Shown in pieces: positions 1,518-36,144 of a DNA stretch of 64,000 nucleotides. The translations under genes and the position numbers were made by a program. Each line of letters starts with the position of its first letter. Within the stretch, counting starts at the first letter, position 1. The notes beneath the pieces were generated by a model. That model was not told the DNA's origin and did not search any database. It saw only the letters and a list, made by a program, of their open reading frames with translations. Source of the stretch: a virus (Duplodnaviria; Caudoviricetes); IMG/VR virus record IMGVR_UViG_3300014204_000161, positions 14,916 through 78,915 of that record; one strand, 5' to 3'.

Positions 1518-1751
1518 TTAGGCTCGTTTCTTTTCGTACTTGTATCCGTTGGCCATGCAGATCTGTTCGAGCTGAGCAGTTTCGGTTCTGTTACGGGTCT
1601 TAAACACTAACGTGCTCTCGCCGTCAGTAACGGCTACTTCGAACCTAGGCTCGTCTTCGGTCTTAAACCAGTTGGAGATTGCCTTTGCGCCGGCGGCGTC
1701 GATGAGGTCTTCGTTTACGAATTCCTCGCGGGATTTAACGTGCTTCTTCAT
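1518..1751 (-). CDS. Putative internal head protein with capsid-targeting-like leader
   Basis: MKKHVKSREEFVNE leader; late promoter GATAAATA immediately upstream (~1757-1764). Confidence 0.65.
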   Translation of the reverse strand: MKKHVKSREEFVNEDLIDAAGAKAISNWFKTEDEPRFEVAVTDGESTLVFKTRNRTETAQLEQICMANGYKYEKKRA

Positions 1752-1790
1752 TGATTTATTTATCGCATGCTGAGCACAAAAATCTGGCGG

Positions 1791-1982
1791 TTACGATAAC
1801 CAGCCGGTGGTCCAAACGAAGACAACAGAACAGATCAAGATGATAAGTTCTATTACCGCCCAGACAGTCCAACGGATTATGTCCGCATGGTCTTGCCTTG
1901 GTTTGTAAGCGATCGGATGTTTTAATACCCAACCAAATAGGAACACGAGAAGGGCTGTAAGTAAAATCTTAAGAGCTATCAT
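1791..1982 (-). CDS. Small two-TM membrane protein
   Basis: Two hydrophobic stretches in a 63-aa ORF. Confidence 0.65.
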   Translation of the reverse strand: MIALKILLTALLVFLFGWVLKHPIAYKPRQDHADIIRWTVWAVIELIILICSVVFVWTTGWLS

Positions 1983-1993
1983 ATCTAAAAATT

Positions 1994-2086
1994 TGCGGCA
2001 ACAGACGGGATCGAACCGTCATTCTCCCGATTGAGTCGGGATTTACCTGTATATTCCAGCCGTGGTTATCTGAACTCTATACTGCC
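1994..2086 (-). tRNA. Atypical tRNA-like RNA (expanded D region; anticodon loop reads UCA or is a deleted CAU loop)
   Basis: Acceptor GGCAGTA/TGTTGCC, T arm GACGG-TTCGATC-CCGTC, anticodon arm TCCCG-ACTCAAT-CGGGA, D region ~38 nt instead of ~19, no encoded CCA; TATATTTA box directly upstream. Confidence 0.55.
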
Positions 2087-2234
2087 ATAAATATAGTACC
2101 CAAAAAACGAGGCAAGGGACCCGCAAATCAATGGGGTCCCAGCCACTAACCGAGTCTAGGGCGAAACGGTTTCATGTCCCGGAAATCTGGCCGGAACTCC
2201 AATTTTATTTATCCGAATCTAATCGGTAGTTAGC

Positions 2235-2477
2235 TTACGCGCGACCGGCAGTGTTCTTCTGCCTGCCACGTACCATGTTGTAGGCAAAGTTCAAGATCCG
2301 TTTGTTCTCGTACCTGCCATGTAGAACGTTGGACACGTGCTGTTCGCTGTACCCCGTCCAAAAAGCAATCTGATTACCGTCTCCTTGTCTCTTGCGAGAT
2401 GCAATGATAGCTCTCTTTGCTCCGACTGGTAAACAACGGTACTTACTTCCGATTCTGCTCTGATTATCTGTGCTCAT
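2235..2477 (-). CDS. Putative helix-turn-helix DNA-binding protein
   Basis: IAFWTGYSEQHVSNVLHGRYEN fits an HTH pattern. Confidence 0.6.
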   Translation of the reverse strand: MSTDNQSRIGSKYRCLPVGAKRAIIASRKRQGDGNQIAFWTGYSEQHVSNVLHGRYENKRILNFAYNMVRGRQKNTAGRA

Positions 2478-2501
2478 TATAATGTTGGTAATTTTTCGAT
2501 A

Positions 2502-3854: not shown

Positions 3855-4361
3855 TCAGATGAAAGTCTCTATGCGCATGAATTCCTCGTCCGTCGGAAGT
3901 GGGCAGTCCTCGATCCATTCGATGTTGGACTTTACTTTCCACAAGCTTAGGTCAAGATCGCTCGGTAACGAGACCTCGTCGAACACGTTCAGCCTCAGCG
4001 AAAGCCCATGATAAGCCAAATTCTTGAGTAAGAACTCGTTAAGGGCTATAAAATCTTTCAGGTCCTTCTGTTCGTGGATGGTTAGGGTAACTCCATCGAC
4101 ATGGTTAAGGATCAGCTTGACGTTCCGAGCATGCGCGGTGTAGACATAGAGTTCCGTTTGGACGGAGCCCAGAGCCTTGAGGATCCAAACTGTGTTCAGG
4201 ATCTTTGAATCCATGAGGGGTTCTCCGCCGGTCAGGATTATCTGATCGTAACAGTCGAAGCTCTTCACGATCGGAAGAGCTTCGATGTTCCATTGCTTGT
4301 TGCAACATCCTGCGCAGGAGCGATTGCAATCGGGGGTTATTAACAGTCTAAGTATCTTCAT
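3855..4361 (-). CDS. Radical SAM (4Fe-4S) protein
   Basis: CNRSCAGC (CxxxCxxC) and TGGEPL motifs. Confidence 0.85.
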   Translation of the reverse strand: MKILRLLITPDCNRSCAGCCNKQWNIEALPIVKSFDCYDQIILTGGEPLMDSKILNTVWILKALGSVQTELYVYTAHARNVKLILNHVDGVTLTIHEQKDLKDFIALNEFLLKNLAYHGLSLRLNVFDEVSLPSDLDLSLWKVKSNIEWIEDCPLPTDEEFMRIETFI

Positions 4362-10425: not shown

Positions 10426-10821
10426 ATGTTCGTCCCAAATCACCTCCATCTAATAGTTAGGGCCCATGTTGACAAGCCCCCATCCTCAGAAAAAGAGCTC
10501 AATGACTGGCTTGAAGAGCTGGTAGGCCTGGTAGGCATGAAAGTTGTCGCCGGGCCCACTTCCACGTATGTCCATGATGAAGGTAACGAGGGAGTCACAG
10601 GAACTATCACTCTAGCAACATCGCATGCCTCGGTTCACGTATGGGATCATGATAAGCCTTCCCTTGTCCAGTTCGACATTTACTCGTGCAAGGAGTACTC
10701 CATCGAGTCAGTGTTCGCTCACCTAAACAAGTTCGAAATGGTGTCGTACCAATGGCTGTTCATCGATAGAAATGACGGCATTCACATTAGTTCCGGCGGT
10801 CGGTGGGACAGAGCAGATTAA
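10426..10821 (+). CDS. speD: S-adenosylmethionine decarboxylase-family proenzyme (pyruvoyl-dependent)
   Basis: GVTG...LATSHASVHVW...FDIYSCK; self-cleavage Ser-His present; TATAAATA at 10400-10407. Confidence 0.85.
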   Translation: MFVPNHLHLIVRAHVDKPPSSEKELNDWLEELVGLVGMKVVAGPTSTYVHDEGNEGVTGTITLATSHASVHVWDHDKPSLVQFDIYSCKEYSIESVFAHLNKFEMVSYQWLFIDRNDGIHISSGGRWDRAD

Positions 10822-10861: not shown

Positions 10862-11035
10862 ATGGCAGTTCATACGCATCCAAGCATACCTTGTCCAATC
10901 TGCGGATTCGGGTCGAAGGCCGAGCCCAAGATACTATCCTTTCATAAATTCATGAATGAGAACGAGGAATCCGAAGAGGAAGATTGGACTCAAATGCTAG
11001 AAACGGTTTCACGAAAAGGACAGGGACGATCCTGA
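10862..11035 (+). CDS. Small protein (57 aa) with CPIC and an internal ILSFHKFMNE motif
   Basis: Read manually; AATAAATA late promoter at ~10835. Confidence 0.5.
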   Translation: MAVHTHPSIPCPICGFGSKAEPKILSFHKFMNENEESEEEDWTQMLETVSRKGQGRS

Positions 11036-11089: not shown

Positions 11090-12688
11090 ATGATCAAAGG
11101 ACCGATTAAGTACTTCAACGATTGGAAATTATTCGAAAGCGAACAGGGTGATCAGCCAGTTCAACCGGTGGATCCTAATTCAGCAGCATCTATCCTTGCC
11201 TCAGTAAAGGCTGAGGACGAAAGAACTGGAGTATCTACTGTTCCTGGGTACGATGCAGTAATGAAATGGTGGAGTGATGGTCACGGACAAAGCACGTTCT
11301 GGGCATCATTCATTAAGTCTCATGCTGAAAGCAAGTACGATAAAATACATTCACTATCTTCTGCTAAGTACTGGGCAGGACAAGGATCTAACCCACAAGC
11401 GGAACAGAAGTTCAATAGTTTCATTAAGGTCGTGGACGCTCTGATCGCAAAGAAAGCTGATCCAACTCTAGCTCCATACCAATTCCTTAACGATCTGGTG
11501 GAAGTGAAGAGACAGTTGGAAGAAAAAAGAAAGGCTGGAGTTCTAATTAGCCAGTATTCTGGAGAGTTCGGAAAGTTCATTCCGGCTTACTTTATGTCTC
11601 AACCTGGCGGAAACGTGGATCCTATCGTTCAGACCATACAGAATGGAACTGCTCAGGACCAGAAGTACATGCAGTACGTTGCCCTTATTAAGAACTTCCA
11701 GGCAAGAATAAATGCTAAACAGTCACCACCTCTCACCCAAGCTTTGTCGGAACTTACTGCTAAATTTCAAAAGGGTCCTGGAGAATTCGCAAAATGGACA
11801 ACGTCCACTACCATTAGTTCGGAAGAAAAGAAACAGTTGCTCGCTAGCATTTCTCAAAAGGCTACCGCGTACTTGGAAAGAATGCAGAAGTACTCTCCAG
11901 AATCAAAGATCACAAATTTGAACTCGGCAATACTTGCGGCTACTGACTTATCGATAGCTCCAAATGGAGACAACATCACAATCATGCCAGCAGCAAAACC
12001 GGTAATTACAACGTCAATAGTGACCGGCCAGTATCCAGCAGTTCCAATAGTCGATGGAGCTTTTGATTCTCATTCAGAAGAGATGACTAAAGCTAAAGCC
12101 CTTTTTCAGGATAACGTTGCTGTTCTAAAACCAGAGAGCATTTCTGCTATCCAGCAATCAGTTGACGAAGCTGTGAAGCTAATAACTGAGCAGGGCGGAA
12201 AAATAAAGAATGTGACTTTATTTGGAGCAGCAAGCACGAGCAAAGTTCCAACGCAGTCGTACGCTGGCGGAAATAAGAAATTAACTACAGATCGTTTCAA
12301 TGCTCTAATTGAAGCATTTAAGAAAGCATTCGAAGGAAAGGCTGAGGCCATAACGGTTGACTCAAGTCGGAGTAAAATAACTCCGGAACAGGGACCAGAC
12401 TGGAACGATCAAGCTAGAGCAAAGTACATGCCAAACGGTCAGAAAACCCCTGAATACGAAACGACTTTCGGTCCATATCGATATGCTATCGGGTATTTTG
12501 AAATCCAATACGTTATAGAAACTCAAGAAGAAAAAACTTTCGAACCTTCAGTTCTTGCGGTTGGAAAATGGAAAGCTTTGATTGGTTGGAGAGGTGAGGG
12601 TATCAAGCTGAGAATTCCGCCAATCCTCACTATTAAATTACGGAACGGCAGCACACCAAGCGTACCAGGTAAATGTTCTCCATGGTAA
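11090..12688 (+). CDS. Putative internal virion protein with an OmpA-like peptidoglycan-binding domain
   Basis: Leader IKYFNDWKLFESE; C-terminal half F.DN.A.LKPES...GAAST...NKKLTTDRFNAL resembles the OmpA-C motif. Confidence 0.6.
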   Translation: MIKGPIKYFNDWKLFESEQGDQPVQPVDPNSAASILASVKAEDERTGVSTVPGYDAVMKWWSDGHGQSTFWASFIKSHAESKYDKIHSLSSAKYWAGQGSNPQAEQKFNSFIKVVDALIAKKADPTLAPYQFLNDLVEVKRQLEEKRKAGVLISQYSGEFGKFIPAYFMSQPGGNVDPIVQTIQNGTAQDQKYMQYVALIKNFQARINAKQSPPLTQALSELTAKFQKGPGEFAKWTTSTTISSEEKKQLLASISQKATAYLERMQKYSPESKITNLNSAILAATDLSIAPNGDNITIMPAAKPVITTSIVTGQYPAVPIVDGAFDSHSEEMTKAKALFQDNVAVLKPESISAIQQSVDEAVKLITEQGGKIKNVTLFGAASTSKVPTQSYAGGNKKLTTDRFNALIEAFKKAFEGKAEAITVDSSRSKITPEQGPDWNDQARAKYMPNGQKTPEYETTFGPYRYAIGYFEIQYVIETQEEKTFEPSVLAVGKWKALIGWRGEGIKLRIPPILTIKLRNGSTPSVPGKCSPW

Positions 12689-13225
12689 CTATTCGACAGT
12701 AGTTAACTGACTACCTACCTTCGTTCCAGCAACCATCGTTGCTACGACCAAGTAGCCAATCCCGTTGTTTACGTATTCGCCGCCAATATCGAAGCCTACG
12801 CTAGTAGTTTCAGGAATAGTCATTGCCATGTTATGACCAGGCGAAGATTTCCAACCATCGAATGCGCACTTAATATCTTCGTCAGTTACTCCGCTAACTC
12901 CGGAGGCTTTTGCATTACTGTGTAAGTCCCCGTAACAATTTTCGACTACTGAATACTGTCGTATCTTATCTCTGTAAAACGGGTCGATGATTTCTAATCT
13001 CGAATGAACACCAATGCCATGGCTGATTTTTTCGAATCTTTTCATCCAAGTAGATTGGACTTTCGCAGCCGAATCAAGAAGCGGATCGTACTGAACTGGT
13101 GTTAATCCCAAACTAATACGATAATCATTGATCAGCTTGAGAAACATTAGATCGTGCTTGTCCTGCGAAAAGGCTAACGATATGCTAGCCAAGACTAAGA
13201 TGATTATAACGAGCGCTTTCTTCAT
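12689..13225 (-). CDS. CAP (SCP/Tpx-1/Ag5) domain exported protein
   Basis: Signal peptide; LINDYR...L..AA..QS..M...H...VENC...W..SPGH..M. Confidence 0.85.
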   Translation of the reverse strand: MKKALVIIILVLASISLAFSQDKHDLMFLKLINDYRISLGLTPVQYDPLLDSAAKVQSTWMKRFEKISHGIGVHSRLEIIDPFYRDKIRQYSVVENCYGDLHSNAKASGVSGVTDEDIKCAFDGWKSSPGHNMAMTIPETTSVGFDIGGEYVNNGIGYLVVATMVAGTKVGSQLTTVE

Positions 13226-13290: not shown

Positions 13291-14001
13291 TTACTTTTTA
13301 ACCGGTGGAATTGGTTTTTCGGTTACCTTTCCTTTTTGATCAGTTTCAGCCATCTTCTTTATGTTCTTCTTGAAAAGTTCTGTCTTGGAAACTGGTTTTT
13401 CCTGTTTAACTGGGGCTTTTCTTGCTACCTCTTTTATTTTCAGGTTAGGAAATCCGCCAGTCTGTTTCTTTTTGCGACCTTCGAACAGAGGATCTTCTTC
13501 GTCGTCCGGTTCAGCTCTGAACGTCTTATCGACGTCTGCTAATGCTTCTGGCTCTTCAGGCACATCTCCGAATTCGTCCTTAGGCTCATTTTCGTACTGA
13601 TCTACGAAATCATCTTCTTCCGTTTCGGTTTTTGATCTTCGAGCTTCCTTAGGTTTGAACTCGATTGAGTACGAAGCTTCCTTGGTAGTAGGATCGGCAT
13701 CGTCCAGCGTTAAATTAACGTCATACGGTTTTCCGCTCCATGTTTCAAAACCGAAGTCCCTTAACGTTAGCTTGTCCGGTGCATACTGGAAGTCCTGATC
13801 GCTCAGCTTTACTCGAATGGTATTTCCTTCAACTCCGAGAATCTTGTGACCTTCAAAGTTTCCGTTGACTATTCCTGCTGCAATTTTGGAAACTTCTTCC
13901 GGCATTGCGGTTCCAACCTCAGCTGCTAAATCAGTACCAATTTCTTCATTTGCAAAATTTTCGTTTACGAATCCTTTGAAGTCGAGAATGAAAGTTTTCA
14001 T
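13291..14001 (-). CDS. Acidic putative internal head protein
   Basis: Leader MKTFILDFKGFVNE; internal LFEG motif. Confidence 0.7.
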   Translation of the reverse strand: MKTFILDFKGFVNENFANEEIGTDLAAEVGTAMPEEVSKIAAGIVNGNFEGHKILGVEGNTIRVKLSDQDFQYAPDKLTLRDFGFETWSGKPYDVNLTLDDADPTTKEASYSIEFKPKEARRSKTETEEDDFVDQYENEPKDEFGDVPEEPEALADVDKTFRAEPDDEEDPLFEGRKKKQTGGFPNLKIKEVARKAPVKQEKPVSKTELFKKNIKKMAETDQKGKVTEKPIPPVKK

Positions 14002-14028
14002 GTGTATCAATGTAATTTTATGGAGAAA

Positions 14029-14403
14029 TTATTTCTTTTTGTCCAAACCGAAGTTCTTTCTAGCTTGTTCGCTTTTTGACAGCTTAGGACCAGTTTTTCC
14101 AGCAGGTTTAGCAGGGTCCTTTTCGTCCTTACCGTTTGGTTTTCCGAATGCGAAAGGCTTACCTTTTTCTGTTGGTTTCTTTGCTCCCTTTTCAAAAGGC
14201 TTTCCGAACGGAGGTTTCTTTGCCTCTGTAATTTCGGGAAACTCGCTAGGCTTATCGAATTCTTGGGCAGCAGCAGTTAACTCTTCCTGTTTGGCGCCGC
14301 ATTCTGCGCAAGTGCCATCTTCCATTATTGCTCCGCCACATTCACATGTAGGTTCTAGCATTTCATTTACGAATTGACCGAAGCCTAATACAAACTGTTT
14401 CAT
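14029..14403 (-). CDS. Putative internal head protein with a small CxCG...CxxCG zinc motif and a K/P-rich tail
   Basis: Leader MKQFVLGFGQFVNE; CECGG...CAECG. Confidence 0.7.
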   Translation of the reverse strand: MKQFVLGFGQFVNEMLEPTCECGGAIMEDGTCAECGAKQEELTAAAQEFDKPSEFPEITEAKKPPFGKPFEKGAKKPTEKGKPFAFGKPNGKDEKDPAKPAGKTGPKLSKSEQARKNFGLDKKK

Positions 14404-14418: not shown

Positions 14419-14865
14419 TTACGGCTCTACGTCCGAATCTTCTGATGTTATTCCGAGCATCTCGTCATTGAACTTATCGTATTCGGCCACAGTGTCCTTC
14501 ATCGTTTGATTAAGGGTGGTCAATTCTGCCTTCAACTCTTCAATTTTTTGCGTGTCCTCTTCGGATACTGAGTTTTGCCGAGTTTCAATAGGGATTCCCA
14601 TGTACTCTTTCTGTTTCTCCTTGAATGCTTTTATTGCTTCCTTTCTGGCCTTATCAATTTCATCGAATCGATCGGCTTCGGAAGCAGGCGATTGAGAAGC
14701 ATCTTCAACTGGTGGAACATCAGTAGGTGATGCATCCGATACTCCAGTGGTGTCTGTGACTGGTTGTTCTATTGGAGCAGCAGGAGGCGGAGCGACAGGA
14801 TTAGTCGGATCGACCTGTTCTGATTCCTTTATCCACTCATCGTACATTTTAACTGAAACTGACAT
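14419..14865 (-). CDS. Putative internal head protein (coiled coil)
   Basis: Leader VKMYDEWIKES; late promoter at 14886-14893. Confidence 0.7.
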   Translation of the reverse strand: MSVSVKMYDEWIKESEQVDPTNPVAPPPAAPIEQPVTDTTGVSDASPTDVPPVEDASQSPASEADRFDEIDKARKEAIKAFKEKQKEYMGIPIETRQNSVSEEDTQKIEELKAELTTLNQTMKDTVAEYDKFNDEMLGITSEDSDVEP

Positions 14866-14920
14866 GTCGGTAACTCATTTTGTTTTATTTATCAGAGAGC
14901 CGAGAATAAATAACTGTACG

Positions 14921-15271
14921 ATGAGCATTTTACTATTCGAACAGTGGGTCAATGAAAACTACCGACCTTTGCGTGTGCTTGACGACCTTGACATCAACCG
15001 TCGTTACAAGGGAACCAGGTATGAGTACGAGCTTTTTCCAAGGTTCAGGAGATTGCAATCAAGAATAAAGCAACTGGACAAAAAACCTGGAATAGAAGAA
15101 TGGTTCAAAATGATGCAGAACTCGGACAACGAATTCTACTCAATGGTATTGACTGGCGCATTGGGTCAGCCGGACGTACGGGAACTATGGCGAGATCTAA
15201 CTGGCCAGAGATCCTCAAGAATGAAGAAATACAATTTAGCTGAAAGCAATGAAACCTCGCAATCCACATAG
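14921..15271 (+). CDS. Putative internal head protein
   Basis: Start moved to ATG 14921 (MSILLFEQWVNE), behind AATAAATA at 14905-14912. Confidence 0.7.
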   Translation: MSILLFEQWVNENYRPLRVLDDLDINRRYKGTRYEYELFPRFRRLQSRIKQLDKKPGIEEWFKMMQNSDNEFYSMVLTGALGQPDVRELWRDLTGQRSSRMKKYNLAESNETSQST

Positions 15272-22776: not shown

Positions 22777-23004
22777 TTAATTTTTTGTTGGGTAAGGTGA
22801 AGTATCGCCGCGTTCCTTTCTGCGAAGGACTGCCATTTGACGGTCTGATGCTCTACCGTGCTGCTTCTTCATGATCGTGTCAAGAACTTCTCCTAAGTAC
22901 TTATCTCCGTAAACTATGGCGCGCCAGTACTTCTCAGATTTTATTTCATGAGGAAACTTGTTCTCGTTCAAGAATTCTTCTACGGATTTAACTGGATTTC
23001 GCAT
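22777..23004 (-). CDS. Putative internal head protein
   Basis: Leader MRNPVKSVEEFLNE. Confidence 0.65.
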   Translation of the reverse strand: MRNPVKSVEEFLNENKFPHEIKSEKYWRAIVYGDKYLGEVLDTIMKKQHGRASDRQMAVLRRKERGDTSPYPTKN

Positions 23005-23951: not shown

Positions 23952-24833
23952 TTACAACCATTTTTTTATTGACTCCATGACTTTCTCTGGAGTTATTGAC
24001 GTGTGACATTCGAATTGACGTGGCGTGCCCTTATACACTGGACACCAAAACCAGTCCTTACTGACGAAATCGAAATCAACTCCAACTCTATTCCAACACC
24101 CATGGCATACGGCCCTATTGATTATTCTAACGTAAGTATCATCAGCTAAATCGAATTCGTACCAATCTTCCGAAAAATTAGAAATCATCGCAACTCGTTG
24201 CCCAAGACCGTGAGCCAACCACGCTAAACCAGAAGAAAGTCCTACGAAGAATTCTGCATGCTCGATGTAATTTATCGTGTCGAGAAGCGAAAGGCCAAGT
24301 CTTTTCACCGATTTTTTCGGTATTCCATTGTAGTACGGAGGATTACCATACAGTTCGTCCTTTTCCGTGACCACTGGTGTGATGCCAGCCTTGCGTAACA
24401 TATCACATAAGGCGTTCCAATTTGGCGCTTCCTGCATCACCTTTGTACCACCTGGATGATTCCAGTACTTCAGTTGAGATGTTGAATGCACACCGATTAC
24501 TGCGTACTTGCCCTTAATTGGTCTATCCTTCTTGAAACTGTCTACTTTCGGGTGAATATAGACAGGATCAGAATAACCTAGCTGTTCCGCGAAATTTTGC
24601 TGAATTGGTTTGGTCCAACTGTGCATAAGGTTTATTATGCGATCTATGCCAGACGGTATTTCATTCACGTACTTGATGTTAGGAAACGACCTAGCAAAAA
24701 GGTTCTGGTGATAAGAATTTCCAAGCAAAGTTAGAACCTCATCACCAGATTCGATCGTGTACTTATTAACATAGGGCATTGCAGCGATAGCATCGCCCAA
24801 TGGGTACCCCATGTTTATCAAAGTTTTGCTCAT
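23952..24833 (-). CDS. AAH/TibC-like (GT9, autotransporter strand-loop-strand) O-heptosyltransferase
   Basis: LGDAIA, STSQLKYWN, FFVGLSSGLAWLA, ISNFS, CHGCWN...WCP...FEC four-Cys set. Confidence 0.85.
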   Translation of the reverse strand: MSKTLINMGYPLGDAIAAMPYVNKYTIESGDEVLTLLGNSYHQNLFARSFPNIKYVNEIPSGIDRIINLMHSWTKPIQQNFAEQLGYSDPVYIHPKVDSFKKDRPIKGKYAVIGVHSTSQLKYWNHPGGTKVMQEAPNWNALCDMLRKAGITPVVTEKDELYGNPPYYNGIPKKSVKRLGLSLLDTINYIEHAEFFVGLSSGLAWLAHGLGQRVAMISNFSEDWYEFDLADDTYVRIINRAVCHGCWNRVGVDFDFVSKDWFWCPVYKGTPRQFECHTSITPEKVMESIKKWL

Positions 24834-25753
24834 TACATATAGAGACGTTTTTCGTAGTTGTCAGTTGCTGCACGAATTACTCTGATCACGTCAATTGCAT
24901 CCTGCACTGCATCGTGCGTTACTTCTCCGCTCAGTCCAGCCCTGCGAATGCATTCGTTCAGGTTCGGAAGTCTTTCGTCTTCTTTCCAGTGAGTGAAGAA
25001 TTCGGCTGGGTCAATGATGCGCTGAGCGAACTGAATGTAATTCGACCAGCTTGGAAGTTTCTCAAGGAACTTCTTGTCGAACGATGCGAAGTTCTTTCCG
25101 GCAACGTTTACCGTTATCTGCTCAGTCCTCGATCCATGGTTCGGATAGATTCCATTTGCTGTGAGCCATATCCATAGGGATTTTGCGACCATTCCCTCTC
25201 CCATGATGTGATTGGTCTTACGGATCTTTTCGCGATCTTCTTTCCTTGCAGTTTCAAGAGAAGCCAGGATTGCGATAATCCAGTTGTTCATGTTGAGAGC
25301 GAACGGTTGACCCTGATAAAGCTGGTGTTCGACTATGCAGGAAAATCTTGGAAGTTCTTCTAGCGGTTTCAAATCCAGGGTGTCCTCTATCACAGCTCCA
25401 ACTTGGAGAATCTGACAGGTTTCGGGATCCAATCCAGTACTTTCAATATCAATCGATACATATTTCATTGTTCTGTAGTTTTTTATCAGTTCGACAAGGA
25501 TGTCTCCATGACACGATTTCGGTTTGCACCAACAGCCAAGAGTCTTTCCTTCCAATTCTTTAAGATCTTGCAACAGTTGAGGTTGGTTTAGGATCCAATT
25601 CCGATACGCTTCTATTGCTTCTTCCCGAGTTTCCACCCTGAATTCTGCACGAGTGCTATCTTTCAGATGAGTGAACGGATTCCCCCATTTACTAGGGCGC
25701 CCTATGTAAACATCATAGGGCTCCTTTTTGCAGTGTACTACTCGAGTTTCCAT
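24833..25753 (-). CDS. DUF4326 domain fused to a DEDDh 3'-5' exonuclease
   Basis: N-terminal YIGRPSKWGNPF...LGCWCKP..CHGD; C-terminal SIDIESTGLD...GKNFASFD...HDAVQDA. Confidence 0.85.
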   Translation of the reverse strand: METRVVHCKKEPYDVYIGRPSKWGNPFTHLKDSTRAEFRVETREEAIEAYRNWILNQPQLLQDLKELEGKTLGCWCKPKSCHGDILVELIKNYRTMKYVSIDIESTGLDPETCQILQVGAVIEDTLDLKPLEELPRFSCIVEHQLYQGQPFALNMNNWIIAILASLETARKEDREKIRKTNHIMGEGMVAKSLWIWLTANGIYPNHGSRTEQITVNVAGKNFASFDKKFLEKLPSWSNYIQFAQRIIDPAEFFTHWKEDERLPNLNECIRRAGLSGEVTHDAVQDAIDVIRVIRAATDNYEKRLYM

Positions 25754-26327: not shown

Positions 26328-27452
26328 TCAAAAATCACTATTACAGATGCGTACATCGTAATCTGTGAAGTTCTTGAAGTCAAGGTCATCTGCTTCTAAC
26401 CTTCTTTGCACGGTATCGCCCGGCATTGCGCGTTTTTCGAGTCGTTCCTTACGAACTTCCCAAGGAATATCCAAGTAAATGACTAGGCTCTGTTTTCTGT
26501 CCTCCGGTTTTACGTGAGACAGTCCAGCAGGAGTCATGATGAATATGTCGTCCGTATTGAACTGATCTTTTGTTGTTCCGTAAAGCCAGTTATTGAAGTA
26601 TACGTACTCGTAAAAGTCTCCGTGGTCAATCATCCTCTGAGCAAGCTCGTTATTGATGAAGTAATAATCCTTTCCGTGAACTTCACCGGGTCTTGGAGGA
26701 CGAGTGGTCATGCTGATAGACTGTTTGAAACCTCTCTCAATGAATTTTTCGCGCAAAAAATCTTTTCCTGAAGCCGCTCTTGCGACTAAAATAATTCTCT
26801 TGTGCATTGACTGTGACGAGATATTTTTTACGAACTCATCGAGTTCCTGTATTCTCTGATCAAGATAGTGATAGTAACGTTTCTGTGCCCAATCCGTATG
26901 GAAATGCATGGACATCATGAACGCTCTCTGCTTCGGAATAAATTCTAGAAGTGGAATCCCAAGTTCTACAGACAGGCCTTTAACAACATGGTCAATGAAC
27001 GTATCCTCCGTCCACTGAAGCAGATCAGCATCTCGGATGATTTGCTGACACTGATTCAGGTCGGAATCGTCAATGACATAAGGGTATTGAGTTGCTGAGA
27101 TTATGGTTTCGACCGCTTCCACATCAATCGGCACTGCACATAGAGGTTCAGTGTTCTTTGTGAATAACGTATGAACTCTGAAAATCTGTTTAGCTTTGAT
27201 GACGTTAAGGTGGTCATTGGTTCCAAAATGCCCGAAGTCATGGTACATCGCCGCAAGCAATAATAATCGAGTATCAGATTCACCCAGGTTAACGGATTTT
27301 GCTATTTCATAGCAATACTTTACCATACAGTGAAGGTGAAACAGGTTATGATACGGTTTCTCGTTTGACGGGTTATTGGTCTCGACCATTTCCCAGTACT
27401 TCTCGATTCCGTACTCTCTTGCTATTGTTGGTATGTTGTACTTTAGTTTCAT
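26328..27452 (-). CDS. HD-domain phosphohydrolase fused to a guanylate kinase
   Basis: YHNLFH...MYHDFGH...DADL (HD); ARAASGKD...TTRPPRPGEVHGKDYYF (GMK). Confidence 0.85.
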   Translation of the reverse strand: MKLKYNIPTIAREYGIEKYWEMVETNNPSNEKPYHNLFHLHCMVKYCYEIAKSVNLGESDTRLLLLAAMYHDFGHFGTNDHLNVIKAKQIFRVHTLFTKNTEPLCAVPIDVEAVETIISATQYPYVIDDSDLNQCQQIIRDADLLQWTEDTFIDHVVKGLSVELGIPLLEFIPKQRAFMMSMHFHTDWAQKRYYHYLDQRIQELDEFVKNISSQSMHKRIILVARAASGKDFLREKFIERGFKQSISMTTRPPRPGEVHGKDYYFINNELAQRMIDHGDFYEYVYFNNWLYGTTKDQFNTDDIFIMTPAGLSHVKPEDRKQSLVIYLDIPWEVRKERLEKRAMPGDTVQRRLEADDLDFKNFTDYDVRICNSDF

Positions 27453-29090: not shown

Positions 29091-29834
29091 TTATAGAGAT
29101 TGGAATTGGCTCCCAATTCCATTCGATTTTAATAATGTATTCAAATGAGCAACTTCGTCTCTATCTAATTCCTGGCCGATCCAGTAAGCTAATGAACAAT
29201 CATTGGTGTATTTTCTGTTTGCTGCTTCGGATTTGAATTTTGCAAAATCTGTTACGTTTCCTGCGCCGTACGTGTTGTACCCCATTTTCAGGCTTCCAAA
29301 GTACTTTGCAAACTTCGTGAATTCATCCTGACTCTTTATTCCAGTGAATACATCAATTATTCCTTCTTCGTCTGTTCCCATGTCCTGCATAGCTTTCAAA
29401 AGTTTAAGAGTCAAATCGTCAAACTTTGCTGGATTTGCAGGTTGCACTGCTGGTTTTGGAGCGGCAGGTTTTGCTTGGCCACCGGCTGCTGGAGTGGCTG
29501 GAGCTCCTTTGCTTCCAGTTGCAGTGAATTTCGTGGCAGTATTCGTGTAAGAAACAATCCCAGTATCTTCAGCAACTTTCCATTCGACTGGAACCTGTGC
29601 GCCCTTTATTGTCAAAGTCAAAGTCCCCGTGTAAACTGGAGGATTAGCATTGACTTTAGCAACAACATCATTTTTCAATTGGTTCCAAGCAGTAGTAGCT
29701 TCTTGGTTGGTTCCTGTTCCGGACTTGGCTGCCAGAACTCCCGATAATGGATCAGCATCTTCTGTGATCATCTCAGAAGATTCGTTTATGAGAGCGAATC
29801 TTTTTAATTCAATGTCTCTGGCATAAGTGCTCAT
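29091..29834 (-). CDS. Putative internal virion protein with an annexin-like repeat
   Basis: Leader ...RFALINES; LLKAMQDMGTDEEGIIDVF matches the annexin endonexin motif. Confidence 0.65.
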   Translation of the reverse strand: MSTYARDIELKRFALINESSEMITEDADPLSGVLAAKSGTGTNQEATTAWNQLKNDVVAKVNANPPVYTGTLTLTIKGAQVPVEWKVAEDTGIVSYTNTATKFTATGSKGAPATPAAGGQAKPAAPKPAVQPANPAKFDDLTLKLLKAMQDMGTDEEGIIDVFTGIKSQDEFTKFAKYFGSLKMGYNTYGAGNVTDFAKFKSEAANRKYTNDCSLAYWIGQELDRDEVAHLNTLLKSNGIGSQFQSL

Positions 29835-29860
29835 GTTTATCATATTCGTGTCGTATGTTT

Positions 29861-30910
29861 TTAGAAGTACAAATTCGGAACTTTAGGGTTATTCGTTTTT
29901 ACCGAAACTACCTGAGCAACCGGAGCTGCCGCAGCGACTGGACCAAGAGCAGCATTTAACTTATCTGAAATTTCCTGAGTGATTGCCGTTATTGGAGTAT
30001 CCGGAGTTCCTATTACTTGTGCGATAGCCTTAGCAGTATTGTCTCCGAATTTACCGTCAGCTCCGCCTCTTTGTTTTAGCGTTTCAGCAGCAGGTCCGCC
30101 CTTAGTAATGATTCTCTGTTGCAATTCTTGAACAGATTTGTTGAACTGCAAATTCTTTGCGATGTTGGCGTAAGATGGGCCAGTCGCAGGAGGAGGTGTT
30201 GCAGGCGGTGGAGTCGCAGGAGGAGGTGTTGCAGGTGGTGGAGTAGCCGGAGGCGGAGTTTCCTGTTTAGGTTCTTCAATTTTAGAAGATGCATCGAGCA
30301 TGGATTGCAAATCGGCTTTCACTTCTGCACTGCCTATTGTCGATGCATCGTAAATCTTTAGATCTTCAAATAGAGGCATCGTAACTTCTTCCTTTACTGT
30401 TGGCACTGGTTGATCAGGAGTTGCGTTTGCTGCAGGGGTTGGAGTTCCATCAGGAATAGTAGCGATCGCAGTAGCCGATTGTAATTGATCCGGCGTGAAA
30501 TGATTTCCCTGATAGAACGAAACAGCACCCGTGTAAACGTAATCACCAACTGCTCTTGTCTGATCCTTCTTAATGTCGATAACCCCAACCATGTCAGATT
30601 TCAATTGACCACCAGTTACTTGGCTGCTAATCATTGATGTGAGTTCATCGATAGCTTTCCTTTTTGCAGCAGTAGGATCGATTTCTTCCGAGTTCACGTA
30701 CTTAAAATCGAATTTCAGAACCTCGCCCTTATTCGTGTCAGGTGTGCCCATTGCGATCTTAATCTTAGTATTGTCTGTGACCTGTTTACCGCGATTGTCA
30801 TTGTACACGGTCTTTTCTTTGTGACGATCCTCTTCCACCGTTGAATTATCAGTCGATTCGTTTAATGACCTCTGATATTCGGCGAAACTTTTTATCTTAA
30901 ACTCGCTCAT
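29861..30910 (-). CDS. Putative internal virion protein with a Pro-rich linker and C-terminal peptidoglycan-binding domain
   Basis: Leader IKSFAEYQRSLNES; (PPPAT)x5; VQELQQRI...GADGKFGDNTAKAIAQ. Confidence 0.7.
   Translation of the reverse strand: MSEFKIKSFAEYQRSLNESTDNSTVEEDRHKEKTVYNDNRGKQVTDNTKIKIAMGTPDTNKGEVLKFDFKYVNSEEIDPTAAKRKAIDELTSMISSQVTGGQLKSDMVGVIDIKKDQTRAVGDYVYTGAVSFYQGNHFTPDQLQSATAIATIPDGTPTPAANATPDQPVPTVKEEVTMPLFEDLKIYDASTIGSAEVKADLQSMLDASSKIEEPKQETPPPATPPPATPPPATPPPATPPPATGPSYANIAKNLQFNKSVQELQQRIITKGGPAAETLKQRGGADGKFGDNTAKAIAQVIGTPDTPITAITQEISDKLNAALGPVAAAAPVAQVVSVKTNNPKVPNLYF
30183..30260 (-). repeat. 15-bp tandem repeat encoding (PPPAT)5
   Basis: Five degenerate 15-nt units read directly. 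Confidence 0.85.
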
Positions 30911-30937
30911 GTATGTTTAGTATTTTTGAAGTTCAGA

Positions 30938-30970
30938 ATTATTTATTCGCGCGAAGTTCGAATAAATAAT
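30938..30970. promoter_or_regulatory. Back-to-back T4-type late promoters (NATAAATA)
   Basis: ATTATTTATTCG-N9-CGAATAAATAAT perfect inverted repeat between divergent genes. The same class occurs at ~1760, 8603, 8837, 10400, 14886/14905, 16394/16409, 19099, 21830, 23323, 45457, 46675, 49280, 56153, 56704, 57364, 58763. Confidence 0.8.
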
Positions 30971-30975
30971 AACCC

Positions 30976-32088
30976 ATGAACAAGTACATATTCGAATTCG
31001 CACAGTACGACAACCGACCTAAAGTTGAACAGTCATTTGGGATCCTCGGTGATATAGGCAGACGCTCCAAGTTTGGAGAACAAACTAGCTACTTCAAACG
31101 TTTGCTTGAACAAGCAGATAAGCTAGGAATAGATGCATTCGTGTTCACGGATTTCAATTCTGCTGGTGTTACTGGTTGGAAACTTCAGCACGGCCAATGG
31201 GTCGCAGAGCAGAGAGCTCTTCCAAAAGTTTTTTACAATCGAAGCTTTAGTAGGAGAAAGAATCTCGGAGGTAAGTCAAGCACACAGTACTTGACAGAAA
31301 TGGGATGCATTCCTTTGAATTCAGCAGGTTTCAGGAAATTAGCCCTAGACAAGCACATGACTTACTCTAGCTTGGTGAGCGAAAAACTTGGAGAACTAGG
31401 TCTTCCGTACACTGAAAAATTCAAACCGGAAAGTTTAGTTCCATTTATGACTGAACGAGCTAATGCAATACTTAAGCCAAGATTCGGTTCTGGAGGAAAG
31501 GGCATTATTAAGCTTAGCAAGAACGGCAAAGGTTATGAGCTTCAGTACAAGGATAACGTTCTTACTTGTCCAGAAGACCAACTGCTCGAAAGAATTGAAT
31601 CCATTAGGCAGAAAATGAAAACAGCGGACCGTCTCTACATAATTCAAGAGTACATTGCCCTCCCTAAATTCCAGGATTCAGTTTTTGACGTTCGAGTAAT
31701 TTACCAGAAAGGGCCAGATGGAAAACCGTATAGGACCGGAATGGCAGCCAGGGTTGCTGCTCCTAACCGAGTGACTGCAAACTTACATCAGGGCGGAGGA
31801 AAAGCTCCATTGAGCTCAATATTAGAAAGTCTATTCAATCAGGACATGAACGGCCCAATCGCAAATTCTATTCGTGAGTATTCAAAAAATATCTTCGAGA
31901 TCCTCGATAAAAAAGTAGGTCCAATCGGAGAGGTCGGAATAGACTTTCTGATCGATCAAGCAGGAAAGGTACACCTAGTGGAAGTAAATTCCGTTCCCGG
32001 GCGGAATCTGTTCAAAATATTGCCGAAAATTCGAGAGGCGGCCATCCGCCGCCCGGTCGAGTACGCTAAGTACTTACTGACCAAATAG
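30976..32088 (+). CDS. YheC/YheD-family ATP-grasp ligase
   Basis: P..FYNR, LDK, LPYT, KP..GSGGKGII, IIQEYI.L...FDVRV..QK, NLHQGG, GIDFLID...L.EVNS.PG. Confidence 0.85.
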   Translation: MNKYIFEFAQYDNRPKVEQSFGILGDIGRRSKFGEQTSYFKRLLEQADKLGIDAFVFTDFNSAGVTGWKLQHGQWVAEQRALPKVFYNRSFSRRKNLGGKSSTQYLTEMGCIPLNSAGFRKLALDKHMTYSSLVSEKLGELGLPYTEKFKPESLVPFMTERANAILKPRFGSGGKGIIKLSKNGKGYELQYKDNVLTCPEDQLLERIESIRQKMKTADRLYIIQEYIALPKFQDSVFDVRVIYQKGPDGKPYRTGMAARVAAPNRVTANLHQGGGKAPLSSILESLFNQDMNGPIANSIREYSKNIFEILDKKVGPIGEVGIDFLIDQAGKVHLVEVNSVPGRNLFKILPKIREAAIRRPVEYAKYLLTK

Positions 32089-32373: not shown

Positions 32374-32997
32374 TTATTCTTCTTTTTCAGCAGGGGCTTC
32401 CATTGTCTGAGGAGTGGTGTCTGGATTGTGGTCCAGTTTAGCATTCGCTTTTTCCATTTCGCGAAGCATGTTGATCTGTTCGTCAAGCGACCTCAGTTCC
32501 ATCATGACATTGTTCATGTTCATGGCGATACGGAAGAGTCTCTGTGCGGCTTCGAGGCCGGAACAGGTATGACGGTTGATGAAGAATGCGCAAGCTTCGA
32601 TTGCTGCGGCCTGGACAACGATTGCGTCTGTCTGCTTTTCTGCTTCCTGACGGGCAACTGCTGAAGAGAAGCCGAGGAAACAATTCATGAGCATGAAAGC
32701 TTCGTTCGGTCCGGTAACTTCGAATTTTCCCTGACAAGCATTCTTAATCCACTTGGCATCGGCTGCTTCCATTTTGACCTGCCAGAAACCGGTTCTGCGA
32801 GCGATTATTTTTTCGAGTTCGGTCTTTCCTTCATCGGGATCGACTGCTTCAGTTGGAGGAGCATCTCCTGGGTCGGTTGGTAAAATTTCTTCGGCAGAGT
32901 TCTCTGAACCTGGAACGATTTCTGGAATAGTCGCGGTTTCGACAGTATCTTCCTGATCGCCAACTGGAATCTGGTCAGTAATAAGTTGTTCGGACAT
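32374..32997 (-). CDS. Hypothetical protein, acidic N-terminus and helical core
   Basis: 207-aa ORF. Confidence 0.7.
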   Translation of the reverse strand: MSEQLITDQIPVGDQEDTVETATIPEIVPGSENSAEEILPTDPGDAPPTEAVDPDEGKTELEKIIARRTGFWQVKMEAADAKWIKNACQGKFEVTGPNEAFMLMNCFLGFSSAVARQEAEKQTDAIVVQAAAIEACAFFINRHTCSGLEAAQRLFRIAMNMNNVMMELRSLDEQINMLREMEKANAKLDHNPDTTPQTMEAPAEKEE

Positions 32998-33049
32998 GTT
33001 GATTTGAATTTATAAGTTTGTACTTAGAAATGAATTCAAAGTTTTCGAA

Positions 33050-33784
33050 TTACAGCAAGTAAGGACACTTTTTACCGAATTCGTCACGGTTAATGTACTC
33101 TGTCAAGTATGGAATTAGACTATTGGTTTCGATATGGTGTTTGAACCATTCCGGCATGTGTCCTATAAAATTCTCGTACACAGTAAAGTATAGGTGAGCT
33201 AGTTCAGGCTTCTTCAGTTTGAAGTTTTCCATTGCCAATAGTACTGGCCCGTTACTAGTAGTACCAACTCTGAACCGTAATAGGTCGGATTTAAGTGAAC
33301 TGTGTAATGACTCAGCTACTTGCTGTAAGTTACTTAGTTCAGGCAATCTATTCAGATTCAAGTGAACTGCTTTTCCATCAATGATCTTTCTTACTCCGAA
33401 TACTTTCCCCTCATGACAAGCGACCTGGTATTGGTCCTTTATTTTTGGACGATTGAAGTAAAGAGATCCCTTTTGCAAAGGAGCAGCATTGATGTGCCGG
33501 TGAGTTGTGAAAGTCTTGATTTCTGAAACCGGTGAAAGAACCGTAATTGGGGTGCTCAGTCGATTAGTGCTCAATCTGTTCGATACGTATTTTGGAATGA
33601 ATGACGACCCAGGAAAGCGATTGAACACCTGATAAGTTGAGAATGCATTGTCTTTTATTTCGATAACGACCTCAGCTGACCTATCTCCGAACAGTTCAGG
33701 CATGTCATTAGACTCACCAACCATTCCAATTTTTTTCGAAAAGGTCTCGATAGTCGGTTGAAATGTTGCGAAAGTTTCTATCAT
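33050..33784 (-). CDS. Hypothetical protein (possibly a degenerate ATP-grasp fold)
   Basis: 244-aa ORF coupled to the upstream gene; fold call is weak. Confidence 0.6.
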   Translation of the reverse strand: MIETFATFQPTIETFSKKIGMVGESNDMPELFGDRSAEVVIEIKDNAFSTYQVFNRFPGSSFIPKYVSNRLSTNRLSTPITVLSPVSEIKTFTTHRHINAAPLQKGSLYFNRPKIKDQYQVACHEGKVFGVRKIIDGKAVHLNLNRLPELSNLQQVAESLHSSLKSDLLRFRVGTTSNGPVLLAMENFKLKKPELAHLYFTVYENFIGHMPEWFKHHIETNSLIPYLTEYINRDEFGKKCPYLL

Positions 33785-36144
33785 CGTATTGTCGTTAATT
33801 TTCCAATTTTGAGAAATGACTCGTTTGCTTGTGGAGGAGGCTCGCTAGCATTGATTACTTCTGGCGGCATCGTATTATTTTGCCAATGTTCCATTATTCT
33901 CTGTTTGAAACCAGGTCGTTCGGCTTCTGTTAATTCTCCTGCTGCTACCATTTTGTCGAGAGTCACGTCTAATCTAGAACTCTTTTCAGCGTTCGGATCA
34001 ATTTGACCATCGTACGTTACGATGTCAGAAAAGTAAGCCTTAACCACTGGGCTTTCGCTAGCTAGAGGGTGTTGAGCATCGACGTTCGTATCCTGTTTCA
34101 GTACACTTAGAACGCCCTTCGTGTAGTTATTCAAGTTAGATTGTTCCCATTCTTCAGGATTATGTAAAGGAGTTTCAACTGTTCCTTTCTTCCAAGCCAT
34201 GTTATTCGTATCAATGATTGCTCCAACTTGACTCGATTTTACAGTGCTCAAATCCAAGCAAGGATTCTTAGAATCAGTTTTCTGTTTCAGTTCGTTAGCC
34301 GCTCTGTCAGCTTCTTGCTGGGCTTCTATGATCTTCTGGTATGTTGCCGGGTCAGAAGTCTTTAATTGATTCAAATCTTCTTGAGAAATTGCAGTTTCAT
34401 CCTGTTCCAAGATAGGAACGGTGCTAAGTATTTCTGAAATAGCTTGCGTTGCTTTTTTCATTCCGACTTGTCCAACTGTACTAGCCGCATCTCCTAGCGA
34501 ATCAGCAGAGGACACGTACTTACCGCAATCAGTTCCTTTAAGTAAGCTCTTTAATAAAAAGATTGGAAGCCTACTTTTCACGAAGCCTATGTGATATAAG
34601 CTACCGAATTTTAGGGCTTTCCCAGAAAATGATTTGAATGTATCTGCTCCTTTTATGAGAGCTTCTGGAACTTCCTTGAATAAAGTAAGAGTCTTTGCTA
34701 TTTCGGGAGAATTTTTGGAAATCAACTTAAAGAAGGCAGGATCAGCCACCATTTTTTCCATTACCTTTCCGAGTTCCTCTGGACTTCCTTTCTTTATGGC
34801 ATTTGCAAGCATTTTATCCGCGCCCTTCCAAGTTTTACCGGAAGCTAATGTTTGCATTAGTTTCTTGTTCTTGGTGATGCTAAGAAGACCTGTCTTCTTG
34901 CTTAGGATGTTTGCTACGAGGTCTTTTGCTGCATCATTGATGATCCAGTTATCTCTTACTGCTTTGTTCGTAACGTTTGGAAATAGCTTATCGAACTTTG
35001 CAGCAGAATTGGCCATAACTTCGGTTTGAAAGTCAGCGATATTTCCAGCCTTTTTTAGTATTCCTTGTTCAGCAGATGTTCTAGACATAGCTGCTTGACT
35101 TTTGTTTAGAGTACGACCTGCTTGTTTTGCTTTGAGTGCAGCTTGATCAACTGCTGCTTGTCCTACGTCTGTTGCTGCTTTCTGTACGGTCTTTTCTGCG
35201 CCTACTGCTGCTTTTCCAGAAAGAAGTTCTTTACTAGCAATGTCTGCTTCTTTTCCTAATGTCGTAAGTTTGGCAACCATGTTATCGAAAGCTGAAACTA
35301 ATTTGGTAGAATACTTTGTTAAATCGACAGCTCCACCAGTTATTTTCTTAACCGCATTGATCACGGCAGGGACGATGGACTTCATCAGCTTTGCACCGGT
35401 TTGCCCGATCCATTTAGCTACAGTAGCAAGCATATTTCCTAGCATCTTTATGACGCTTGGATTCTTTATTTGCGTTTTTGCAACGTTTGCTGCAGCAGTT
35501 CCTCCACCTGCTCTAACTAATAGACTTCCAATTTTCGCAAGAGCCTTACCGAAAGTTTTTCCAGCGATTTTTAACGGAGCAGCAAATAGAGCTCCAGTAG
35601 GAATTACTGCGACTAAATTTATGAGACCCATTAGGTACTCATTGTTGTAAAAGTAAATACCTGCATTAAGAAGGTTAGCAACGATGTCAGTCGGAATTCC
35701 TACCAATGAAGCTGGAATCAATCCTACTATGTCCAAGAAAAATTGAAATACTCCCAATGGATTGAATCTATCTTCGCTATTGGTCATCTTTTTTAAGAAC
35801 GACCATATTGAGGTTATGAGGTTTTCGTTAATTACTTTCAAGGAAGCTAACGTGGCTTCGTATGTCTTACTCTCGGTCAGAGCTACGGTTGAATAACCTG
35901 CTTGAAGAAGTCGATTTTCGTTGACTGTTATGACTTGAATTGAAGGAAAGGCACTAAGCAGATAGACTTGATGGTCATCAACCCTGTCCTGTTCGCTTTC
36001 GGACAGTTCTTTTCCTGGAAATGAAAATGTTGGAATGCGATCTAGAGCTTCCCATGGCATTTTTAGGAAAGCTTCTCTGATCGGAGCTAGAATTTGGGTA
36101 TCGTCCTGATTGAAAAACTCCTTTACTGATAATACGTGATTCAT
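33781..36144 (-). CDS. Large putative ejected protein with a pre-toxin-TG-like hydrophobic hairpin
   Basis: Leader MNHVLSVKEFFNQ; LDIVGLIP...G...DIVANLLNAGIY...E...GLINLVAVIPTG followed by a long A/K/G-rich helical region. Confidence 0.7.
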   Translation of the reverse strand: MNHVLSVKEFFNQDDTQILAPIREAFLKMPWEALDRIPTFSFPGKELSESEQDRVDDHQVYLLSAFPSIQVITVNENRLLQAGYSTVALTESKTYEATLASLKVINENLITSIWSFLKKMTNSEDRFNPLGVFQFFLDIVGLIPASLVGIPTDIVANLLNAGIYFYNNEYLMGLINLVAVIPTGALFAAPLKIAGKTFGKALAKIGSLLVRAGGGTAAANVAKTQIKNPSVIKMLGNMLATVAKWIGQTGAKLMKSIVPAVINAVKKITGGAVDLTKYSTKLVSAFDNMVAKLTTLGKEADIASKELLSGKAAVGAEKTVQKAATDVGQAAVDQAALKAKQAGRTLNKSQAAMSRTSAEQGILKKAGNIADFQTEVMANSAAKFDKLFPNVTNKAVRDNWIINDAAKDLVANILSKKTGLLSITKNKKLMQTLASGKTWKGADKMLANAIKKGSPEELGKVMEKMVADPAFFKLISKNSPEIAKTLTLFKEVPEALIKGADTFKSFSGKALKFGSLYHIGFVKSRLPIFLLKSLLKGTDCGKYVSSADSLGDAASTVGQVGMKKATQAISEILSTVPILEQDETAISQEDLNQLKTSDPATYQKIIEAQQEADRAANELKQKTDSKNPCLDLSTVKSSQVGAIIDTNNMAWKKGTVETPLHNPEEWEQSNLNNYTKGVLSVLKQDTNVDAQHPLASESPVVKAYFSDIVTYDGQIDPNAEKSSRLDVTLDKMVAAGELTEAERPGFKQRIMEHWQNNTMPPEVINASEPPPQANESFLKIGKLTTIR

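Follow-up and report, generated by a model that had tools for sequence, protein, structure and literature searches.

The 64,000-nucleotide window analysed here (bases 14916-78915 of the 78,915-bp contig IMGVR_UViG_3300014204_000161, from an uncultured virus of the Caudoviricetes) encodes a family of proteins that share a short N-terminal leader resembling the capsid targeting sequence (CTS) of phage T4. Positions are those of the window unless the contig or a relative is named; strands are given as + or -, and an arrow follows the last residue of a leader or site. The leaders are likely to be T4-type capsid-targeting and maturation propeptides, through which cargo would be loaded into the head, cut free and leave with the DNA. 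They are N-terminal, are conserved in orthologues and are associated with late promoter boxes, and complete relatives of the virus encode T4-type head machinery. By analogy with T4, the leader proteins are probably virion-packaged cargo, which would be packaged, cleaved and injected. A preliminary description of the window had proposed such a family on unrelated proteins; every N-terminus that it quoted was recovered where it had been placed, and the family is borne out for 11-12 window proteins.

The contig is a fragment (CheckV completeness 29%). About 107 uncultured viral contigs carry relatives of its large terminase (TerL; 51448-53469, -). Three complete relatives are 270-271 kb long (TerL 68% identical), one of them with direct terminal repeats; a fourth, near-complete relative is a 253-kb genome (94% complete, TerL 71% identical). 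G002, a complete 271-kb relative, was used for the orthologue, promoter and shuffle comparisons. The nearest cultured phages by TerL, at just 29-34% identity, are Sphingomonas phage PAU, Tenacibaculum phages PTm1, PTm5 and pT24 and Flavobacterium phage MaF61; megablast of the DNA against cultured phages gave no match. The clade consists of abundant uncultured freshwater jumbo phages of Bacteroidota type, in the ~270-kb genome class.

The consensus leader is [IVL]-x-x-[FYV]-x-x-[FWYL]-[VILF]-x-E, mostly 1-5 residues past Met; leaders are 11-21 amino acids (aa) long. In all strict members, motif position 4 is F, Y or V and position 7 is F, W, Y or L. The [VILF]-x-E ending is found at 11-12 of the 14 listed sites and is absent in those starting at 30976 (FAQYD) and 36144 (FFNQ). 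A six-frame scan of the whole contig with the strict pattern [ILVM]xx[FYWVLI]xx[FWYL][ILVFMK][NKHQ]E gave 16 matches. Eight of them sit 1-5 aa past the first or nearest Met of a long open reading frame (ORF), and a single match falls within a real gene. Two of the eight N-terminal matches are upstream of the window (contig 2138-2920, -, and 13483-14091, -), so the family is larger than the preliminary description could see. The minimal four-position core, [FYW]xx[FYW][ILV]xE, stands at the N-terminus of 5 contig proteins (0.23 ± 0.46 in shuffles) and of 17 proteins of G002 (0.57 ± 0.71 in shuffles). Its odds ratio for N-terminal versus internal occurrence is 22 in the contig (p=7.5e-5) and 10 in G002 (p=1e-10). 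A position matrix derived from the strict members and run on G002 found the motif 1-5 residues past Met in about 20 proteins, nine of them absent from the training set; internal matches numbered only ~7. The matrix was also applied, with a cut-off of at least 12 bits, to 20 loci (~400 kb in total) around orthologues of the 639-aa leader protein (16435-18354, +). These loci were found with a two-sequence alignment as the query; the 639-aa protein alone found nothing. There, 66 of 70 matches, corresponding to 36 distinct leaders, lie no more than 6 residues from a Met with an ORF continuing for at least 50 residues.

Without their first 22 residues, the window leader proteins give no pairwise BLASTP match at E<0.01; the carriers therefore appear to be unrelated except for the tag. 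Homologue pairs between the contig and G002 retain the leader, while their aligned parts are merely 28-63% identical overall. G002 lacks a counterpart for roughly half of the leader genes, a sign of fast turnover.

The T4 resemblance claimed initially is real and specific: the four functional positions of the T4 CTS are those conserved here. In T4 (NC_000866), internal proteins IPII and IPIII begin MKTYQEFIAE↓A and IPI begins MKTFKEFTSTTTPVSTITE↓A (MKTFKEF...ITE↓A). On IPI, IPII, IPIII and Alt, the CTS is cut off by the prohead protease gp21 (Mullaney and Black 1996, as given in PMC9026906, PMC3012670 and PMC5694885). The first ten residues of IPIII are enough for head incorporation; residues 4 and 7 chiefly determine targeting, residues 8 and 10 determine processing, and gp21 cleavage follows L/I-x-E (PMC9026906). 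T4 propeptides are 10-20 residues long (PMC5694885). In MKTYQEFIAE, the four positions are Y4, F7, I8 and E10 (two aromatic residues, an aliphatic one and Glu), spaced as in the present leaders. As in T4, a short N-terminal propeptide (11-21 residues here) is found on otherwise unrelated proteins, with two aromatic residues three apart and then aliphatic-x-Glu; putative late promoters are of the TATAAATA type; the proposed cargo set turns over rapidly; and relatives in the lineage encode an S77 protease together with a T4-type portal and a gp23-type capsid protein. Unlike in T4, where P2 is Ala, P2 is Asn (or Lys, His, Thr), and usually 1-5 extra residues precede the motif. Carriers number ~12-14 on 79 kb here and ~20 in the 271-kb relative, against four in T4, and include recognisable enzymes. 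In relatives, the protease is fused to motif-bearing scaffold-like repeats; T4 gp22 is without such repeats. The maturation site of T4 gp23, FGSFLTE↓A, shares the aromatic-x-x-aromatic-aliphatic-x-Glu core with the CTS (YQEFIAE↓A). This common core suggests that the targeting and cleavage determinants of T4 may be one extended recognition element.

The association of the leaders with late-promoter boxes, also proposed at the outset, holds at the level of sequence. Promoter boxes are consensus matches to the sequence, not transcripts. ATAAATA is found within 60 nucleotides (nt) upstream of 8 of 13 N-terminal candidates, and a box relaxed at its last two positions, ATAAA[AT][ATC], at the same distance upstream of 11 of 13. 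Among called genes of the contig, ATAAATA precedes 5 of 7 leader genes and 19 of 111 others (p=0.004); in G002, it precedes 11 of 19 leader genes and 47 of 306 others (p=6e-5). The same box is upstream of the gene encoding a T4 gp6-like baseplate wedge protein (54445-56130) and of other structural-region genes. By analogy with T4 gp55, a phage sigma-factor-like protein (phrog_1740; 49792-50430, -) is a candidate reader of these boxes. Two pairs of leader genes, 14865-14921 and 30910-30976, are divergent, with back-to-back AATAAATAA boxes in intergenic regions of 55 and 65 nt. A leaderless S-adenosylmethionine decarboxylase-like gene (10426-10821, +; PF02675, 1.5e-11) also lies behind an exact TATAAATA box.

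Seven proteins fit the strict pattern directly past Met; their genes start at 1751 (-), 14001 (-), 14403 (-), 14865 (-), 14921 (+), 16435 (+) and 23004 (-). The 77-aa protein 1518-1751 (-; leader MKKHVKSREEFVNE↓D) is encoded amid early-type small genes, with ATAAATA at -12; it has no Pfam or PHROG match and no orthologue in G002. The 236-aa protein 13291-14001 (-; MKTFILDFKGFVNE↓N) has neither a family nor a PDB match. In the 124-aa protein 14029-14403 (-), the leader MKQFVLGFGQFVNE↓M is followed by a CxC...CxxC motif. In the 148-aa protein 14419-14865 (-; late box at -27), the leader MSVSVKMYDEWIKE↓S is followed by a Pro-rich linker; the G002 orthologue (41% identity) begins MIHKYQQWLDE↓S. 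The 116-aa protein 14921-15271 (+; MSILLFEQWVNE↓N) has a late box at -15, divergent from the 14865 box, and a G002 orthologue (63% identity) that begins MKLLSTYSDWLNE↓N. The 639-aa protein 16435-18354 (+; MINSFIQLVHE↓S; late box at -26) would be a conserved cargo: M1, S4, E11 and S12 are invariant across 10 orthologues. In its AlphaFold2 model (mean predicted local distance difference test score, pLDDT, 72), residues 2-13 are helical and disorder follows up to residue 31; no PDB fold matched the model at E<=0.001. The 75-aa protein 22777-23004 (-; MRNPVKSVEEFLNE↓N) has no late box of its own.

Four sites fit more loosely (3-4-residue insertion or longer lead-in) and end in [LIVF]-x-E: 11090 (+), 29843 (-), 30910 (-) and an internal site of 19155-20081. 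Three of the four have leader-bearing homologues in G002: a full-length orthologue for 11090, partial homologues for 30910 and 19155-20081. The leader of the 532-aa protein 11090-12688 (+), MIKGPIKYFNDWKLFE↓S, is followed by an acidic and Pro linker; the orthologue (28% identity) begins MKHSIIKGYSSWLNE↓N. No family match and nothing in PDB sequences were found for this protein. The 308-aa protein 19155-20081 (+) carries PG_binding_1 (residues 73-109) and, at about 121-132, the internal leader-like sequence INFKDFTSHIYE↓A; its residues 141-194 match a VanY protein of G002 with the N-terminal leader MENKILNFKQFLTE↓A. The 349-aa protein 29861-30910 (-; MSEFKIKSFAEYQRSLNE↓S, with a 3-residue insertion; late box at -36) gave nothing in a PDB sequence search; its partial G002 homologue (77 aa aligned, E 4e-12) begins MTFVKTFESFRATSLTE↓A. 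The 250-aa protein 29091-29843 (-) has a 21-aa leader ending in KRFALINE↓S and an annexin-like stretch at residues 130-183. Its gene lies 17 nt downstream of 29861-30910 and is without a late box of its own, whereas 29861-30910 has one; the two are probably co-transcribed. Membership is uncertain for a 57-aa ORF (10862-11035, +; late box at -26) in which a CPIC motif is followed by ILSFHKFMNE↓N (residues 24-33). Two further proteins are doubtful members: a 370-aa YheC/D-type ATP-grasp enzyme (30976-32088, +; N-terminus MNKYIFEFAQYD; PF14398, 5.5e-55; late box at -14), which may also be a decayed one, and a 787-aa protein (33781-36144, -; N-terminus MNHVLSVKEFFNQ; late box at -28), whose G002 orthologue (28% identity) reads MSYVVSSQQFFE↓S, i.e. 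FFE↓S.

The relatives encode the machinery on which such leaders could act. Peptidase_S77 (PF03420) is found above the Pfam cut-off in 4 of 4 near-complete relatives (94-100% complete), where it is part of an open frame of 674 aa; the domain also passes the cut-off in 5 of 5 more distant relatives. In G002, a gp23-family capsid gene lies directly downstream of the protease (1.5e-41), and a T4-type portal is encoded (1.3e-67); in a second relative, G004, a gp23-like protein was identified by eye. The N-terminus of the capsid protein contains ASINE↓T and GSINE↓SAVAPG in G002, ASVTE↓T and GSLNE↓S in G004. An aliphatic-Asn-Glu ending thus also occurs at a putative capsid-maturation position. Immediately following the capsid gene is one for a basic, repetitive leader protein (MSNTVLNYAQFLLE↓KK in G002, MKSVLSYEEYLFE↓KK in G004), which resembles the basic internal proteins of T4.

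The C-terminal half of the protease ORF consists of tandem 14-residue repeats (G002:C1 ~99.9-101.9 kb; L082:1354-3336; also L126-L129 and L125). Their consensus, I-x-Y-S-E-Y-[LVI]-[AG]-E-[NK]-x-x-x-x, has the same core as the leaders, and each protease carries 8-14 copies. The eight exact-core repeats of the G002 protease make up 8 of the 30 internal core matches in that genome (271 kb). Repeats number 12-14 in relatives whose TerL is 45-49% identical, and Tenacibaculum phage PTm1 has a looser version of the array. In a more distant clade, G005, leaders of the x-N-E form are retained and the scaffold repeats read L-A-E-N; this comparison of leader and repeat covariation is non-discriminating. 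Each repeat ends in a predicted cleavage motif, and the array is probably a built-in, self-dismantling scaffold. A 512-aa protein of the structural region (38627-40165, -) has two internal cores, LTDLTKYVNE↓N (residues 149-158) and AFHSYVME↓N (about 416-422), both kept in the G002 orthologue; from their sequence, they are candidate protease sites.

The following sequence of events is proposed. About 12 residues of the leader would fold into a short amphipathic helix; a flexible linker, acidic or rich in Pro, usually comes next. During prohead assembly, the leader would dock on the scaffolding core, which would here be the C-terminal half of the prohead protease itself, with its 8-14 tandem 14-residue repeats. 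Once the shell is closed, the S77 (gp21-family) protease would cleave after Glu and free the cargo in the head; the same cleavage would chop the scaffold repeats into ~14-residue peptides. At infection, the cargo would exit with the DNA, as IPI-III and Alt do in T4. The common core of leader and repeat suggests that the tag mimics one scaffold unit. It is conceivable, though rather doubtful, that the leader is a single copy of the protease-scaffold repeat, through which cargo would join the core during assembly and be set free when the same cut dismantles it. Such mimicry, if true, would provide a mechanism by which a 10-residue tag suffices for loading.

Other known systems are less similar. 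In phiKZ-like giant phages (phiKZ gp175, SPN3US gp245), propeptides of head and ejection proteins are cleaved at S/A-x-E (PMC5694885, PMC9026906). The present clade is like these phages in its jumbo genome and in a gp21-related protease with a long C-terminal extension; phiKZ-like heads also have many processed internal proteins. However, phiKZ-like propeptides are mostly 80-130 residues long, without a common short leader (PMC5694885), as against 11-21 aa here, and their P3 is Ser, Ala or Gly, as against V, I, L or F. The present leaders thus do not show the phiKZ-like features (S/A/G-x-E cleavage, propeptides of >80 aa). Moreover, TerL, capsid and portal (from the contig or relatives) match T4-type Pfam families directly. 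Protease-scaffold fusions such as gpO of phage P2 have the protease domain at the N-terminus and the scaffolding part at the C-terminus of a single chain, and their gene lies just upstream of that of the capsid. The protease of the present relatives shares this arrangement (protease and putative scaffold in one chain, upstream of the capsid gene) but belongs to another protease family. Fusions of the gpO type are not known to have a 14-residue repeat array with a cleavage or targeting motif. A literature search found no description of this clade or of a repeat-bearing protease-scaffold fusion, no proteomic data, and no CTS-like family outside T4-like, phiKZ-like and P1 systems.

The cargo had been listed as GNAT-like, ATP-grasp, pre-toxin-TG, annexin-like, OmpA-like and peptidoglycan (PG)-binding. 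ATP-grasp, PG-binding and a weak annexin-like assignment stand; GNAT, pre-toxin-TG and OmpA were not recovered, with no Pfam match at E<=1 among the leader proteins tested (14921-15271 to E 0.01). The ATP-grasp match is solid, yet it is on the weakest, Glu-less leader (30976-32088). The protein 19155-20081 matches PG_binding_1; the PG_binding_1 match of 29861-30910 is weak, as are its endolysin-family matches. The annexin-like stretch of 29091-29843 has E 4e-5 against PDB annexin VI. Most window leader proteins have no match in Pfam, PHROGs, PDB sequences or the ESM Atlas. A PT-TG cluster retrieved from the ESM Atlas for the 639-aa and 787-aa proteins (rank 26, score 0.80) is at noise level and was rejected; it gives no usable lead.

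In relatives, clear leaders are found on a T4-lysozyme-family domain, a VanY peptidase, a NUDIX hydrolase, a RimK-type ATP-grasp and an adenylate kinase; a HAD-type hydrolase and a possible nucleotidyltransferase, both below the Pfam cut-off, also have them. The statement that the cargo is far more varied than that of T4 is fair as a count, but the tag of the relatives also heads metabolic-looking enzymes (adenylate kinase, NUDIX, HAD). The Pfam domain starts at residue 27 in the adenylate kinase (ADK), 18 in NUDIX, 19 in HAD and 23 in RimK (preATP-grasp), i.e. at most ~10 residues past the leader; it starts farther in for VanY and the lysozyme. Where domains begin shortly past the leader, the tag appears to be an add-on ahead of complete domains. 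Two carriers of G005 (TerL 45% identical) are unexpected as candidates for virion cargo: the adenylate kinase (L133:14125-14754; PF00406, 6e-37; leader MESKIKAFNEFLNE) and the RimK-type ATP-grasp (L133:1394-2854; PF08443, 3.6e-35; leader ...VLNFVSFLNE).

Several observations weigh against the leaders being capsid-targeting propeptides. The preliminary description had taken an equal frequency of the motif on early and metabolic proteins as a refutation. Window genes of assigned replication or nucleotide function (ThyX, ligase, HD-guanylate kinase, exonuclease, PhoH, TerL) are leader-free, but the tagged adenylate kinase, NUDIX and HAD of relatives touch on this point and would be unusual virion cargo. 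The contig has no Peptidase_S77, gp23 or T4-portal match and no head genes, as expected of a 29% fragment; the link to the machinery is drawn from relatives with 68-71% identical TerL. The T4 CTS reaches only 5 bits on the matrix of the clade, mainly owing to P2 (position 9), which is Ala in T4 but Asn in the present leaders. The leader helix of the AlphaFold2 model of the 639-aa protein has low confidence (pLDDT ~40). The protein 30976-32088 keeps the aromatic spacing without [LIV]-x-E, and 33781-36144 has Gln at the position expected for Glu. In cultured relatives, the form F..F.NE is not N-terminally enriched in Tenacibaculum phage PTm1 (7 matches, 6 in the control); in a 36-kb stretch of Sphingomonas phage PAU, which holds 5 of its 12 matches, all are in a non-coding frame or intragenic and none is N-terminal. 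PTm1 and PAU thus yield no tractable model phage with the tag.

Three other explanations were weighed. The tag could be a protease-removable propeptide that serves as a general assembly handle of virion proteins (head shell, neck, tail, lysins) or as a zymogen-type lock, the carriers not being free injected cargo. The same core is indeed found at the T4 capsid maturation site and at the conserved internal sites of the 512-aa protein 38627-40165, and the tagged lysozyme and VanY of relatives belong to cell-wall enzymes that are tail-associated in many phages. This explanation is nevertheless held to be unlikely: most tagged proteins are small, turn over fast and have no G002 orthologue, which better suits accessory cargo than a structural core, and the same four positions suffice for head targeting in T4 (PMC9026906).

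A tag that docks on a non-head factor (a modifying enzyme, a chaperone, a degradation or timing system, or an intracellular compartment) would account for the metabolic-type carriers of relatives (adenylate kinase, NUDIX, HAD, ATP-grasp). Its low probability comes from the end of the tag, which is the motif cut by the protease family of this phage group, from its match to the protease scaffold repeats, from its presence on the basic protein encoded beside the capsid gene, and from the late promoter common to leader genes, the baseplate-wedge gene (54445-56130) and structural-region genes. A constraint on nucleotides (an AU-rich translation start without a Shine-Dalgarno sequence, or a recombination cassette) is very improbable: the N-terminal codons are A/T-rich, TTCGTAAACGAA occurs in two leaders and its one-base synonymous variant TTCGTAAATGAA in a third, and no Shine-Dalgarno sequence is apparent upstream, but codons vary synonymously or conservatively (GTA/GTC/TTG/ATA, AAC/AAT, GAA/GAG), F, Y and W interchange, regions upstream of start codons differ, and the motif also forms protein-level tandem repeats within the protease ORF. 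The different codons and the F/Y/W interchange indicate that conservation acts on the protein.

A recognition tag for a radical-SAM enzyme was also considered and rejected, as no Radical_SAM domain is found in the contig or in three relatives. A 168-aa early-region protein (3855-4361, -) has CxxxCxxC (DCNRSCAGCC) near its N-terminus, no Pfam match and no G002 orthologue. Besides the baseplate wedge protein and the sigma-like protein, the window encodes PhoH, ThyX, a DNA ligase and two fusions: HD domain with guanylate kinase (26328-27452, -) and DUF4326 with RNase T-type exonuclease (24833-25753, -). The G002 counterparts of both fusions cover the C-terminal domains only, as separate shorter genes. 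A CAP/SCP-domain protein (12689-13225, -; PF00188) with a signal-peptide-like N-terminus adjoins the 532-aa leader protein, a position that it keeps in G002.

The targeting principle itself has been known from T4 since 1996. If the leaders are capsid-targeting propeptides, the T4 rule aromatic-x-x-aromatic-aliphatic-x-Glu would be conserved far beyond Straboviridae. The repeat array of the protease suggests a testable binding target for the tag, which may also serve as a handle to load foreign proteins into such phages. The leader would be a sequence-only label for the virion 'ejectome' of this uncultured phage group: ~12-20 proteins per genome that would act in the first seconds of infection and would be prime candidates for anti-defence or host takeover, almost all of unknown fold or family. 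On the more doubtful scaffold-mimicry reading, Bacteroidota-type jumbo phages would deliver at infection a large, fast-evolving 'starter kit' of cell-wall, ATP-grasp and nucleotide-handling enzymes and many unknowns.

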